A DNA stretch of 64,000 nt from IMG/VR virus record IMGVR_UViG_3300043093_000048, positions 32,001-96,000 of that record; one strand, written 5' to 3'. Each line of letters starts with the position of its first letter. The stretch's first letter is position 1. The position numbers and the translations under genes are program-made. Below are positions 2,539 through 63,457 of the stretch, in pieces. The notes beneath the pieces were generated by a model. That model ran no database searches and was not told where the DNA came from. It saw nothing but the letters and a program-made list of their open reading frames with translations. Origin of the DNA: a virus. Taxonomy: Duplodnaviria > Caudoviricetes.

Positions 2539-4008
2539 ATGATTAATATCGCAAATAACAAAGAGTTTAATACTTTATTTAAAAAGATTAAACAGTCAAT
2601 AACAGAAGAAGGAGTTGAATATAGTTCTTTAGAGAATGATATGATTGAATTGTTTAATAATATGATAGCAGCAATAGAACTTGGAAAAGGTGATGAAGCT
2701 TTTGTAGGAATGTTTCTTCCAAAGATTAATAGAGTTTATGATTTCTCAGAACCATTTATTGCAGGAATTGCAATAATTAATGAAACTATAACTCTTAAAA
2801 TTAATCCACTATTATTCTTTAATATGTGTGATAGTTATGAAGACTTTGTAGTGGTTATTACGCATGAAATTTATCATTTGGTATTTAAGCATCTTAATAA
2901 AGAAAGAATGTTACCTAATCATAAGATTGATAATATATCTAAAGATATTTCTGTAAATCAATATATTAATTTTAGTTATGCTTGTTCTACTTTAAGAGAT
3001 GGTTGTTGTAAATTAGCAGATATTCAAGAATTAAATCCTGAACCTAAAAGAGAAAATGAATATTATTATGATTTAATAATTAATTCTAAAAATATCTTTA
3101 ATGATGGAAATGAAGAAAATAATAATGAAGATAAAAAGCTTAAAAATATGCTTAATGATTTAAAAGATCTAAAAGATAAATTAAATAATAATGACTTAAG
3201 TGAAGAAGAAAAAGAACAAATCGAAAATGATATTAAAGAATTAAAAGAAGAAATTAAAGATTATATTAAAGAACATTATAAAATAATGGATATTGATTAT
3301 TCAAATAATTCTTCTAATTCAGATGAAATAATTCTTAATGATTTAGTTGAAAGTACTCTTTCTGAAGCTAAAGAAAAAGGAAAGATTCCATCAAAAATTA
3401 AAGATACAATAGATGATCTTTATTATAAAAAGCCAATTATCAGTTGGAAGAAAGAATTAAGAAATATTGTTGGTAGTGTTCCTTGTCCGTATAAGAAAAC
3501 CATGAGAGTAAAAAATAGAAGACAACCTAGAAGAGCTGATCTTCTTGGAAAGGTAAATGATAGAAAGATTAGAATAGCTATTTGTATTGATACATCAGGT
3601 TCTGTTTCTAATGAAGAATTAAAATATTTCTTTAATGAATTATTTAATATTGTTAAAGATTATAATACTGAAATTACTTTAATTCAATGTGATAGTAGAG
3701 TTAACTCAGTAGATATTATTACTAATAAAAGAGATGTAAGCAAAATTGCTATTACTGGTAGAGGAGGAACTTGTTTTACACCTGCTTTTGAATATATTAA
3801 AGAAAATATTCCTAAGTATAAACAGCCAAACGTAATTATATATTTTACTGATGGTTGGGGTGAATCTACTATTAATCTTAAATATAAACCTATGGGAGAA
3901 ATTATGTGGGTTTTAACGGGAAATACTCATAATACATTATCTGTTAAAACTCCTGAATTTATTAAAAAGGTAAGACTTCTTAATATCGAAGGTAAAAAAT
4001 ATATTTAA
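2539..4008 (+). CDS. Metallopeptidase-like + VWA domain protein (DUF2201-like; usual partner of MoxR AAA+ ATPases)
   Basis: N-terminal HEIYH (HExxH); C-terminal MIDAS motif DTSGS, then GRGGT and YFTDG. Confidence 0.85.
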   Translation: MINIANNKEFNTLFKKIKQSITEEGVEYSSLENDMIELFNNMIAAIELGKGDEAFVGMFLPKINRVYDFSEPFIAGIAIINETITLKINPLLFFNMCDSYEDFVVVITHEIYHLVFKHLNKERMLPNHKIDNISKDISVNQYINFSYACSTLRDGCCKLADIQELNPEPKRENEYYYDLIINSKNIFNDGNEENNNEDKKLKNMLNDLKDLKDKLNNNDLSEEEKEQIENDIKELKEEIKDYIKEHYKIMDIDYSNNSSNSDEIILNDLVESTLSEAKEKGKIPSKIKDTIDDLYYKKPIISWKKELRNIVGSVPCPYKKTMRVKNRRQPRRADLLGKVNDRKIRIAICIDTSGSVSNEELKYFFNELFNIVKDYNTEITLIQCDSRVNSVDIITNKRDVSKIAITGRGGTCFTPAFEYIKENIPKYKQPNVIIYFTDGWGESTINLKYKPMGEIMWVLTGNTHNTLSVKTPEFIKKVRLLNIEGKKYI

Positions 4009-25247: not shown

Positions 25248-26799
25248 CATTACCATCATTATTCTTCACATAAGTTCGTTAATCTTATGCAGTTCTCTTA
25301 TGAACTTCTCTAGTTTTATTTATATCTAGAGTTGAGACTATATCTTCATAGAAAATATTTCTATGCTCCCCATTTCGATTTAATCAGGAATTACTGAATT
25401 ATTACTTCATACCTGAACCACTTGGCTCTACTCTACTCTCTTCTTCAATTATTCTTTAAGAATAATTTATGATTTCGATAGTCGTTGAACGTTACAAAAA
25501 AAAACTTCTTATAAAAAGAAGCTTTTTTGTCTTCGCTGCTGATTATCCTTATATAAAGGAGTTTCCAGCAATTAAAGGAGTTTATACTGAGCAACATTAT
25601 TCTTCGATTATTTCATAATTTTCATTTAAATATTTGTCTAAATTTTTAATATAATCTTCATCGTAGGAAAGTCTTAAAAGATCTTTATTATTTTCTTTAC
25701 ACCAATCATTTTTCATTTTATCATGTTTTTGAGTTAAAGATAATTTATTTTCATCTTTATACCAACCAGCTTCAAAATGTTGTTTTCCATCATATTCAAT
25801 AAGTAAATCATATTCAGTTAAGTAAAAATCAAATCTTAATAAATATTTATCTTTACAAGTAGAAAAAGTTTTTTCTTGAATATAATTTATATAATTATTT
25901 TCTAAATATTCTTTTATTTCCTTAACCGCTTTAGATTCTGAATTATGTAAATTACAACAAGGACATCTATTTCCTCCTAAGAAGTGAGTTGGTGTCATTT
26001 CAAATATATAATGATTACAATTATTACTATTATGTTGAAATTTTATTTTAGAGCTATTATTAATATAATCACTTATTACTATATATTCATCTTTAACTAA
26101 ATCATATACTTCTTTTTTAAACTTTTCAGTAGTTTTTAAGTGTGTTCCAAAACAATAAGGACATCTTCTACCACTTGAAAATGATTTTGGCTCTACATAA
26201 TAAATATTATTACATTTTTTATGACGTAATTTTACTTTAGTCTTACAATTAATATAATTACTTAATAATTCATAATCATCACCAATTTCTTTACTAAATG
26301 AATCAGTAGTTTTCTTTTTAAGCTTAGAACAATTAGGACATCTATGATTTTGATGTAAAAATTTAAAAGGTTTCATTTCAAATTCAGTATTACATTTATT
26401 ATGTTTCATTTTAATTTTATCATTAGTTGTTTTATATTCACCTAATACTTCATATTCATTTCCTACTAAATTATATATTTCTTTTTTAAATCCTTCAGTA
26501 GTTTTCTTAGGTGTTCCAAAACAATAAGGACATCTTCTACCTCTTAAAAAATCATTAGGTCTAGTTTCAAATTCAGTATTACATTTATTATGTTTCATTT
26601 TAATCTTAATTTTATTACTAACATATTCACCTAATACTTCATATTCATTTCCTACTAAATTATATATTTCTTTTACAAATTCTTTTTGTGTTTTTCTTTG
26701 TTGACAATAAGCCATATTAAACACTTCCTTTCACGAATATAATATATACGTAAAAGTTTAAACTAAAATTATTTTTTTAACCATCGATAATAACTTCAT
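25248..26799 (-). ncRNA. Group I intron (IA-like, P7.1/P7.2 extensions) in the prohead protease gene
   Basis: Minus strand: P UUGCUGGAAA, Q AUCAGCAG, R GUUCAACGACUA, S AAGAUAUAGUC; 5' exon ends in U, intron ends in G; P1 ACUGGGU/GCUCAGU. Confidence 0.9.
25597..26724 (-). CDS. Intron-encoded homing endonuclease (4 zinc-ribbon repeats + Vsr-like/EDxHD nuclease)
   Basis: Four KHxxC...RCPxC repeats; RFDFYL...IEYDGKQH; lies inside the intron. Confidence 0.85.
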   Translation of the reverse strand: MFNMAYCQQRKTQKEFVKEIYNLVGNEYEVLGEYVSNKIKIKMKHNKCNTEFETRPNDFLRGRRCPYCFGTPKKTTEGFKKEIYNLVGNEYEVLGEYKTTNDKIKMKHNKCNTEFEMKPFKFLHQNHRCPNCSKLKKKTTDSFSKEIGDDYELLSNYINCKTKVKLRHKKCNNIYYVEPKSFSSGRRCPYCFGTHLKTTEKFKKEVYDLVKDEYIVISDYINNSSKIKFQHNSNNCNHYIFEMTPTHFLGGNRCPCCNLHNSESKAVKEIKEYLENNYINYIQEKTFSTCKDKYLLRFDFYLTEYDLLIEYDGKQHFEAGWYKDENKLSLTQKHDKMKNDWCKENNKDLLRLSYDEDYIKNLDKYLNENYEIIEE

Positions 26800-61342: not shown

Positions 61343-61885
61343 TTATTCTTCGTATTCTACTTCTTCGCCTTCAGATGTATAGAACTTTCCATCAGAACCT
61401 TCCCATACATCATTTTCTTTATCAATGCATTTAATAAGTTCAATATCTTCTTCAACTTCATCTATTACTTCTTCATTATTATCTAAATTTTTATCAATAT
61501 ATAAAGAAGAATTTGGAATAAACTTTACATAGTTTTCTTTAATAAGATCAGCAACAGCTTTTCTTAATTTTTCATTCTCATTATACTTTTCTTTAAAAGT
61601 CTTTAGAGTAAATTTAACTTCAGGAAGTTTTTCTAAATAATAAGCTCTTGGAGAACCCTTAAGTAGTCCTAATTCCTTGAAATTAACTAAATTACTTAAA
61701 ACATTGTCAAAACCTGACGACTGTTCAAAAACCATTTCAAAAGTTCTTCCTGCTTCATTAGATCTTGACTTTATGAACTCACCTTTTACCATAAATCCTT
61801 TAACACCATAAGTTGAATCTTCATCAAGCTTTGTTGAAGTTGTACAACGAATGATATTATTGGCAAGGTATAGTATTGAAGAACC
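61343..61885 (-). CDS. recA: RecA/UvsX-like recombinase, exon 3
   Basis: Begins GSSILYLANNIIR, then IKSRSN; completes the ESIPG-G motif after splicing. Confidence 0.85.
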   Translation of the reverse strand, partial: GSSILYLANNIIRCTTSTKLDEDSTYGVKGFMVKGEFIKSRSNEAGRTFEMVFEQSSGFDNVLSNLVNFKELGLLKGSPRAYYLEKLPEVKFTLKTFKEKYNENEKLRKAVADLIKENYVKFIPNSSLYIDKNLDNNEEVIDEVEEDIELIKCIDKENDVWEGSDGKFYTSEGEEVEYEE

Positions 61886-63110
61886 CATAACTAGACTATA
61901 TCTTAATCCTTTATAAAAAAGGATCGCTCCCATTTCCATTTAATCTGGAATTATATGATTATTGCTCAATACCAGAACCCATTAATGGGCTGTACTCTAC
62001 TTCCTTCGTGTAAGTATTTCAACTTACCTTATTCTCTATATTATAGAGTTATATTTATTATTTGGTTTCGATAGTCGTTGAACTTAAAATTTTTTCAATA
62101 TTATCTTTATCAGAAATAGTTATAAAATTATAACCATATTTTAAAGCCAATTCTTTTTTATTTTTGTCTATAAGTTGTCTTTCTTCTAAATCTTTATCTG
62201 TCATATTCCATTTCTTTTTATAGTGTTGTTCACCTTGAAATTCTATTAATAAATTTTTAGATTCTATAAAAAAATCATATGGTTTATTAAATAAATATTT
62301 ATCTTCTTTGAGAATATAGTTATGAATATATTTTACATTATTATTATTTAAAAATTCTGAGATAAATTTTTCTCCTTTACTCATCTTAGACATTTTAGAA
62401 CATTCTTTACAACCTTGTCCTCTATAATGATGTAGCATATCCATCTCAAATTCACCATGAATTGGACAAATTATAATACTTTTTGTCTTTCCATTAATAT
62501 AATTAAATTTAGAATAATCATATTTATTATTATGGATTTTATTAGCTTTCTCTTTCCAATTAGTATTTCTTTGTTTATTTGCCATATTTTCTTTTCCACA
62601 TTTTGGGCAACCACATCCATTTAAATGAATACCAGCTACCATTTTAAATTCACCATGTTTAGGACAAATAATAATTACTTCAGAATGCCAACTTTTATAT
62701 TCAGCTTTAGAATAATCATATTTATTATTATGGATTTTATTAGCTCTTTCAACAAAAGAATTAGCACAATTTTTTACTCTAGAAATACTACATTTTCTTT
62801 TCTGATCAAGAATAGGATTTTTTCCTTTATACATTGAATCACAACCTTACTTTAATAAAATTATAAATTCATGTTAAAAGGTAGTAGATCCTTTTATTTT
62901 AAAATTTTTTAGATGCTGATAGTCAATTATAACGATACTTAGAATTTCTTCATATATCAACTTTTATATTTTTTCTGATTTTCATCAACATTCACGCTTA
63001 GAATTACTTCTTACGTTGTAGTTATAAAAGTATTATGACGTTCCAGCAATTAAGGAGCTTTATTTTTCGCAATGTTACCATTACGCCAGGCAGTTCGTTC
63101 ATTTTGTTCA
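61886..63110 (-). ncRNA. Group I intron 2 of recA (endonuclease in the P6 region; P9 apparently absent)
   Basis: P1 CCAGGU/GCCUGG, P10 GAACU/GGUUC, P2 with GUAA loop, P UUGCUGGAA, Q UCAGCA, R GUUCAACGACUA, S AAGAUAUAGUC, terminal G at 61886. Confidence 0.88.
62058..62834 (-). CDS. Intron-encoded homing endonuclease (KYDYSK...ICPxHGEF repeats + Vsr-like/EDxHD nuclease)
   Basis: Two repeats; PYDFF...IEFQGEQH; 3' end overlaps intron element R (SSTTIE); internal late motif 62864-62875. Confidence 0.85.
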   Translation of the reverse strand: MYKGKNPILDQKRKCSISRVKNCANSFVERANKIHNNKYDYSKAEYKSWHSEVIIICPKHGEFKMVAGIHLNGCGCPKCGKENMANKQRNTNWKEKANKIHNNKYDYSKFNYINGKTKSIIICPIHGEFEMDMLHHYRGQGCKECSKMSKMSKGEKFISEFLNNNNVKYIHNYILKEDKYLFNKPYDFFIESKNLLIEFQGEQHYKKKWNMTDKDLEERQLIDKNKKELALKYGYNFITISDKDNIEKILSSTTIETK

Positions 63111-63125
63111 ACCTGGAATACTTTC
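63111..63125 (-). CDS. recA: RecA micro-exon (exon 2), 15 nt: GAA AGT ATT CCA GGT = ESIPG
   Basis: Flanked by the terminal G of intron 1 and the U-G P1 pair of intron 2; restores the RecA ETTPGG-like motif. Confidence 0.85.
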
Positions 63126-63457
63126 CTTTAAATTTTCATATAAGGTCGTTAAGCTTATATCGTTCTCTTATGAACTGCTATATATTACTATATAGAAAAG
63201 ACTATATCTTCATAGAAAATATTTCTATGCTCCCCATTTCGATTTAATTAGGAATTATAAGATTATTACTCTAAACCTAAACCACTTGGCTCTACTCTAC
63301 TCCCTTCTTCAGCTATTCAATAATAGCTTATAGTTTCGATAGTCGTTGAACTTTTATTCTAAGAATTCTTAGAATACTTAGCTGCTGATTGTCCTTGTTT
63401 TAAGGAGTTTCCAGCAATTAGAGGAGTTTAGACAGGACTCAAGATTATCGTTGGTTA
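63126..63457 (-). ncRNA. Group I intron 1 of recA (332 nt, no ORF)
   Basis: P1 ACAGGAU/GUCCUGU; P, Q, R and S elements; P9 with GUAA loop; terminal G at 63126. Confidence 0.9.

Follow-up and report, generated by a model that had tools for sequence, protein, structure and literature searches.

Is a P9 domain obligatory in a natural group I intron? Reviews count P9 within the P3-P9 catalytic domain of group I introns (PMC2238919, PMC3984707), GISSD likewise takes P3-P9 as the catalytic core, and subgroup IA2 is described with an extended 3' domain of P9.0, P9.1, and P9.2 (PMC4227781). The question was raised by an earlier note on the window, the whole 64,000-nt stretch of DNA that was analyzed (bases 32001 to 96000 of a 265,109-bp record), in which the second intron of a UvsX/RecA-like gene appeared to lack P9 entirely. 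The source record is a single virus genome (24.8% GC; 100% complete according to CheckV) of the AR9-like jumbo phage type, and the named phages closest to it belong to the Bacillus AR9/PBS1 group and to the jumbo phages of Staphylococcus and Listeria. The UvsX/RecA-like gene lies on the minus strand, its exon 1 product is 62% identical to the intronless AR9 g086, and it is interrupted by two IA-type group I introns with 15 nt between them (Table 1).

To place the splice sites of intron 2, the window exons were compared with the intronless AR9 UvsX (..NYFKQDESIPGGTSCIYLAN), to which NYLKQD, ESIPG, and GSSILYLAN align in succession without a gap. In the minimum-energy fold, P1 of intron 2 is a 6-bp helix (CCAGGU/GCCUGG) with the U.G pair at the splice site; its 5' strand is formed by the last 6 nt of exon 2, and the helix is conserved in orthologs. 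The P10 guide GAACU lies immediately 5' of the internal guide sequence (IGS) and is kept in both orthologs for which the 5' half is known. The intron ends in UAUG directly before exon GGUUC, with both the terminal (omega) G and the P10 pairing expected of group I introns. The gapless AR9 alignment, P1, and the GAACU/GGUUC pairing thus upheld the earlier view that the 3' splice site is fixed both by protein conservation and by P10. Within the P1 loop (63092 to 63110), UGAAC stands at the start and GAACU at the end, each of them kept in orthologs; UGAAC might pair with GUUCA of the R element or act as an alternative guide for P10.

Between P7 and this splice site there are, as had been noted, just 8 nt, terminal G included: the S element AAGAUAUAGUC is followed by UAGUUAUG and then by exon GGUUCU. 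No P9 helix was found in intron 2 or in its orthologs at the same site, and the P9.0/P9.1/P9.2 domain of subgroup IA2 is absent from intron 2. A P9.0 pairing inside the 8-nt tail was ruled out by geometry, as no 2-bp pairing with a viable loop can be formed, and the tail together with 20 nt of exon had no structure beyond chance relative to shuffled sequences (z = +0.56). The longer tails ascribed earlier to the other two introns of the window were confirmed, with 74 nt in intron 1 (63199 to 63126) and about 88 nt in intron 3 (25335 to 25248; the intron spans 25248 to 26799), and both fold as P9/P9.1/P9.2. The Infernal alignment that the earlier note had proposed as a check was also run, with an Rfam model. 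With RF00028, intron 2 scored 19.8 to 20.7 bits and did not reach the gathering threshold of 50, and the alignment (20.7 bits) forced only a noncanonical "P9" into the exon. Rfam searches with the 3' half, the 5' half, and related loci gave a false forced P9 or no match, and RF00028 was therefore no help for subgroup assignment. The low score says little, because P9-bearing and ORF-less relatives escape the model as well.

In every core feature tested other than P9, intron 2 is a group I intron. The P3-P7 pseudoknot, P4-P6, P8, and the P, Q, R, and S elements are all present, and P7.1 and P7.2 lie between P7 and P3' (62048 to 61945), as in subgroup IA2. In agreement with the earlier note, the minimum-energy fold contains a P2 with a GUAA loop and a P5 extension of about 120 nt, neither of which is found in intron 1. 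The P5 region holds P5 (GUCA/UGAC), P5a, hairpins with a GUAA cap (63011 to 63000) and a GAAA cap (62987 to 62976), and a conserved A-rich stretch, CAGAAAAAAUA, at 62977 to 62967. A further hairpin of the extension, UAUGA-AGAAAU-UCUAAG (62954 to 62938), resembles the 11-nt GAAA receptor, its UAUGA/UCUAAG motif being a variant of the UAUGG/CCUAAG type. The last 13 or so codons of the intron ORF (62058 to 62095) overlap the 3' strand of P6 and the 5' strand of P7, so core folding would be in competition with translation of the ORF.

Table 1. Features of the split UvsX/RecA-like gene and intron 2, with the 3' tails of orthologous introns (sequence after AAGAUAUAGUC) and of other P9-less introns of the genome
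Feature	Coordinates	Strand	Sequence or remarks
Exon 1 end	63458	minus	..NYLKQD; AR9 alignment
Intron 1	63457-63126	minus	332 nt; RF00028, 79.6 bits
Exon 2	63111-63125	minus	GAAAGUAUUCCAGGU = ESIPG; AR9 alignment and minimum-energy fold
Intron 2	61886-63110	minus	1225 nt; group I, subgroup IA type, without P9
P10 guide	63092-63096	minus	GAACU; pairs with exon 3 nt 1-5 (GGUUC)
P2	63068-63085	minus	7-bp stem, GUAA tetraloop; minimum-energy fold
P3 5' strand	63054-63058	minus	GCUCC; ortholog comparison
P element/P4 5' strand	63041-63051	minus	AAUUGCUGGAA; near-identical to intron 1
P5 and extension	62921-63040	minus	About 120 nt; minimum-energy fold, compensatory changes versus L020
Q element/P4 3' strand	62914-62920	minus	AUCAGCA
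Intron ORF	62058-62834	minus	258 aa, in L6 loop; phage homing-endonuclease family (phrog_559, 1.2e-47)
R element (J6/7 and P7 5' strand)	62070-62083	minus	GUUCAACGACUAUC; identical to intron 1
P7.1/P7.2 domain	61945-62048	minus	Subgroup IA hallmark; hairpins kept by compensatory changes in orthologs
P3 3' strand	61926-61931	minus	GGGAGC
P8 hairpin	61905-61925	minus	GAUCCUUUUUUAUAAAGGAUU; contains CC:GG step
S element (J8/7 and P7 3' strand)	61894-61904	minus	AAGAUAUAGUC; identical to intron 1
3' tail	61886-61893	minus	UAGUUAUG, 8 nt; terminal (omega) G at 61886; no P9, no P9.0
Exon 3	61343-61885	minus	GSSILYLANN...; starts GGUUCUUCA from 61885; stop codon 61345-61343
Ortholog tail, L013 and L037			UAUAAAUG, 8 nt
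Ortholog tail, L015/L016			UAAAUAAAUUUG, 12 nt
Ortholog tail, L012			UGAUUAGAAGAUUG, 14 nt
Ortholog tail, L014			UAAUUUGAAGAUUG, 14 nt
Terminase large-subunit (TerL) intron 1	L005:5134-5151	minus	Tail UAUAAAG, 7 nt
Virion RNA polymerase (RNAP) beta intron B	L004:2118-2141	minus	Tail CAAUUAUAAAAUG, 13 nt
RNAP subunit C-terminal intron	L006:1784-1806	minus	Tail UAAAUAAAAAAG, 12 nt; intron of 400 nt (L006:2185-1784), ORF-less

Relatives were obtained by a protein search with the exon 3 ORF, which returned split genes at 50 to 76% identity. Five further independent metagenome assemblies, from different samples, share the intron at the same site, giving six with the window. Every tail is followed directly by GGUUC, and the tails themselves vary in sequence, only the first U and the final UG being constant. 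In P8, four pairs carry double (compensatory) changes among the five sequences compared. One pair of the P2 stem changes from G-C to A-U, and the loop in orthologs is GAAA or GUGA, always of the GNRA type. The P3 pairing GCUCC/GGAGC becomes GCUUC/GAAGC in the SRR8266642/3 ortholog; between copies, P5 changes from GUCA/UGAC to GUUA/UAAC, P5a from ACUUUUAUA/UAUAAAAGU to ACUUAUUUA/UAAAUAAGU, and the P5-extension hairpin from GAA/UUC to GGA/UCC. These compensatory changes in P2, P3, P5, P5a, P8, and the P5-extension hairpin indicated that the RNA fold is under selection. A search of viral contigs with exon 3 found no relatives. A DNA pattern spanning P7', tail, and exon matched viral contigs 12 times, always in unrelated introns in which GGGUUC lies within the P9 stem, and a stricter junction pattern had no match in metagenome contigs.

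Several observations concern the insertion site itself. In the orthologs with 14-nt tails (L014:134-150; L012:2363-2380), GAAGA in the tail and UCUUC in exon 3 are complementary, spanning the 3' splice site (fold z = -1.5). The 8- and 12-nt forms lack this pairing, with which P10 would have to compete. Precisely at the ESIPG/G site, phage ERZ27316332 (L023:1150-1440) carries an intron that is distinct from intron 2 and has a P9; the site thus offers a graded natural series of a P9-bearing intron followed by 14-, 12-, and 8-nt tails. On a low-coverage contig (L012:1750-2380), a DNA polymerase exon and the 5' half of an intron are joined to the 3' half of the recA intron via a truncated endonuclease ORF; the junction reflects either recombination or a chimeric assembly through intron sequence that is shared.

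Intron 2 is not alone in its own genome. A scan for the P7/P7' motif identified at least 12 IA-type group I introns in the 265-kb genome, in the window (25248 to 26799 and 61886 to 63457) and at five further loci (L004, L005, L006, L007, and L008). Three of these, in the terminase gene and two RNA polymerase subunit genes, also have no P9. TerL intron 1 has a P1 (GGUGGU/GCUACC) and a clear P10 (AAUGU/ACAUU), and its junction GG/NVGYELH corresponds to GGKVMYELH of phage Madawaska. RNAP beta intron B has a P1 (GUCAAU/GUUGAC), a clear 7-bp P10, and exons that align without a gap to phage SA1. The RNAP C-terminal intron has a P1 and a weak P10, and homologs align from the first residue of its exon. 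All four P9-less introns have a P5 extension, and P2 with a GNRA loop is present in three, RNAP beta intron B having no evident P2. The introns of this genome with a full P9-P9.2 domain have no P2 and a short P5; among the further introns, some carry one P9 hairpin capped by a GNRA loop (tail lengths about 16 and 25 nt) and others the full P9-P9.2. In the P7.2 region of RNAP beta intron B (L004:2170-2190, minus strand), a 10-nt hairpin loop, UUUAUGGUUU, is perfectly complementary to AAACCAUAAA near the 5' end of the same intron (L004, about 3525 to 3535, minus strand), some 1.3 kb away across the endonuclease ORF; the pairing may be a replacement tertiary contact. In Staphylococcus phage Machias (L011:420-600), an intron of about 180 nt with a P9 hairpin and no P7.1/P7.2 occupies the same MKTG/Q site as the 400-nt P9-less intron.

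An assembly deletion of P9, or decay of a degenerate intron in a dead gene, could have left a tail this short, and the RF00028 score of only about 20 bits is what such a remnant might give. That score, however, reflects a model that misses P9-bearing relatives too. The short tail is found in six independent assemblies from different samples, the exons are in frame, P1 and P10 are intact, the helices covary, and the same P9-less architecture recurs in terminase and RNA polymerase genes. We consider artefact or decay improbable in the extreme. Rather, since related phages retain the form and three other genes of the same phage have it as well, intron 2 is very probably a working natural variant. 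On these comparative grounds, we put the probability that intron 2 is a real, evolutionarily maintained phage IA-type group I intron without a P9 domain at about 80%.

The earlier note had suggested that, in the tandem precursor, P9/P9.1/P9.2 of the adjacent intron 1 might serve intron 2. The two are close together, the 3' domain of intron 1 lying about 20 to 90 nt upstream of the 5' splice site of intron 2; moreover, P7.1/P7.2 of the two introns are very alike, and RNAP beta intron B, too, comes second in its tandem pair. Intron 2 nevertheless has orthologs without intron 1. A protein search with exon 1 returned two products (P0015 and P0021) that end in ..KQDESIPG followed by a stop; on their contigs, from the same samples as L014 and L015, an uninterrupted exon is followed by the 5' half of an intron 2 ortholog. 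The uninterrupted KQDESIPG exon indicated that intron 1 is missing from at least two relatives. Likewise, no intron lies immediately upstream of TerL intron 1, which has the same P7.2 type, or of the RNAP C-terminal intron, both of them P9-less, and intron A, the upstream partner of RNAP beta intron B, offers no more than a single P9 hairpin. A genome-wide search for an orphan P9.1/P9.2 module acting in trans gave a single match, a chance one inside a coding frame. Complementation by intron 1, as proposed in the earlier note, is therefore not supported and very unlikely.

A more serious alternative is that the P9-less intron works only with a protein helper that replaces the 3' domain. The helper might be the intron's endonuclease in the role of a maturase, a different phage protein, or an RNA chaperone of the host. 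The stability of IA2 ribozymes depends in part on peripheral 3' domains, intron 2 of the window has an ORF for a 258-aa protein of the endonuclease family that overlaps P6/P7 at its end, and the genome encodes many endonucleases of that family. Against this, the family carries nuclease annotations only, and P9-less introns without an ORF exist. In the SRR17543913 copy (L020), P6 is a plain hairpin with no ORF, and its contig stops where L014 begins; joined, the two give an ortholog of about 425 nt with neither ORF nor intron 1. A marginal 3-bp stem is possible in 14-nt tails, so this ortholog is less extreme than the 8-nt form of the window. The P9-less RNAP C-terminal intron (L006) has no ORF either. 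The P9-less form is thus independent of intron 1 and of the intron ORF. The proposed dependence on the intron-encoded protein is weakened by these two ORF-less introns, a trans-acting host or phage protein or chaperone is a possible helper, and we regard the protein-helper explanation overall as rather unlikely. Of the interpretations in the earlier note, the comparison favored the natural P9-less ribozyme with other peripheral support, for which the 8- to 14-nt tails in six assemblies and the covarying helices argue.

How such a natural P9-less ribozyme might select its 3' splice site can be suggested from its anatomy, and we infer that intron 2 is spliced. The catalytic core (P3, P4, P6, P7, P8, and J8/7) and P7.1/P7.2 are intact, and the 5' splice site would be set by the 6-bp P1 with its U.G pair. 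Selection of the 3' splice site probably depends on only two things, the 5-bp P10 and a short tether (7 nt plus the terminal G). Through the tether, the terminal G would fold back to the G-binding site at the neighboring end of P7, with P10 aligning the 3' exon; because the G-binding pair sits at the end of P7 where the tail leaves, a 7-nt linker can return the terminal G. In group I introns, P9.0 and P10 aid binding of the terminal G (PMC2588497). Other contacts probably take over the bracing that L9-P5 docking and P9.1/P9.2 normally provide. One candidate is the GNRA loop of P2, likely docked on P8; the other is the large P5 extension, with its GNRA loops, A-rich stretch, and receptor-like motif, for which a bracing role may be proposed. 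In the window, L2 is GUAA and P8 has CC:GG, and GUGA occurs with CU:AG in the SRR8266642/3 ortholog, TerL intron 1, and the RNAP C-terminal intron. These combinations fit the GNRA receptor preferences known as the rules of Costa and Michel. The L2-P8 rule comes from a small sample of four cases, and the P9-bearing RNAP beta intron A is an exception. According to work on sunY by Michel, Jaeger, and Westhof, the 3' terminal domain of T4-type IA2 introns is reportedly needed for activity at physiological Mg2+, so autonomous self-splicing of the P9-less form is not a given. We give somewhat less than an even chance to the view that these introns represent a conserved lineage of natural group I ribozymes that splice alone without P9 or P9.0, with the 3' splice site selected via a 7- to 13-nt tether to P7 and P10, and with L2-P8 docking and a P5abc-like extension standing in for the L9-P5 clamp.

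Tailed phages cannot do without terminase and virion RNA polymerase. With a P9-less form shared by several phages and located in essential genes, the minimal natural architecture of group I introns would need redefining, and autonomous P9-less splicing, if true, would show that P9 can be dispensed with in the core. The P9-less form also shows that peripheral modules are exchangeable in nature, with a 3' domain in one type and P2 plus a P5 extension in the other, and the graded series at one insertion site would be available for dissecting 3' splice-site selection. As test objects, the ORF-less ortholog and the L006 intron offer compact natural ribozymes with a minimal 3' end. There is also a consequence for annotation: the P9-less form accounts for the failure of the standard covariance model, RF00028, on most introns of these phages (here 1 of at least 12 reaches the threshold), and split genes are consequently misannotated.

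Compared with known phage IA2 introns (T4 td, nrdB, and sunY/nrdD; Twort orf142; AR9 RNAP beta', L017), intron 2 has the same P, Q, R, and S core (AAUUGCUGG, AUCAGCA, GUUCAACGACUAUC, and AAGAUAUAGUC), the same P7.1/P7.2 between P7 and P3', homing endonuclease ORFs in peripheral loops, and hosts among phage DNA-metabolism or structural genes. The known introns, however, have P9 and P9.1/P9.2 in about 60 to 90 nt after P7, whereas intron 2 has 8 nt; it also possesses a GNRA-looped P2 and the P5 extension, both absent from the T4/AR9-like type in the same genome. With its GNRA-capped hairpins, A-rich stretch, and UAUGG/CCUAAG-type receptor motif, the P5 extension recalls P5abc of the Tetrahymena intron (IC1), although the latter belongs to another subgroup, the likeness is at the level of motifs, and a stabilizing role of the extension would be presumed from it. 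Matches to the extension in phage databases were intergenic intron-like repeats of Staphylococcus Twort-like phages and not orthologs. In Twort-like Kayvirus and Silviavirus (L003:1480-2130; L018:1500-1930), tandem intron-like RNAs with the same P4-P5-extension module occupy an unannotated stretch after the tail tube gene; the P7 strands are present, with no obvious P3' or P8. A further match, in Listeria phage LPJP1 (L019:340-760), is group I-like with the same P5 extension and lies near the genome end, outside annotated genes.

Loss of the 3' terminal domain is compatible with catalysis in constructs of the Tetrahymena and Candida introns without P9.x, and the sunY "miniribozymes" of Doudna and Szostak, engineered group I ribozymes truncated at the 3' end, reportedly retain catalysis. 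Such truncations are laboratory deletions, usually requiring raised Mg2+ or trans substrates; intron 2, in contrast, represents a natural cis intron lineage across diverged phages. No description of P9-less phage introns was found in the published literature, and among published natural group I introns, the only one found to be modeled without P9 was the mitochondrial Pa.rnl.1 of Prasinoderma coloniale, whose P9-less state was described as very unusual (PMC3873408). Pa.rnl.1 is a trans-spliced, fragmented IB intron for which the authors suspected a missing third piece or accessory factors (PMC3873408), whereas intron 2 is contiguous and its P9-less state is conserved.
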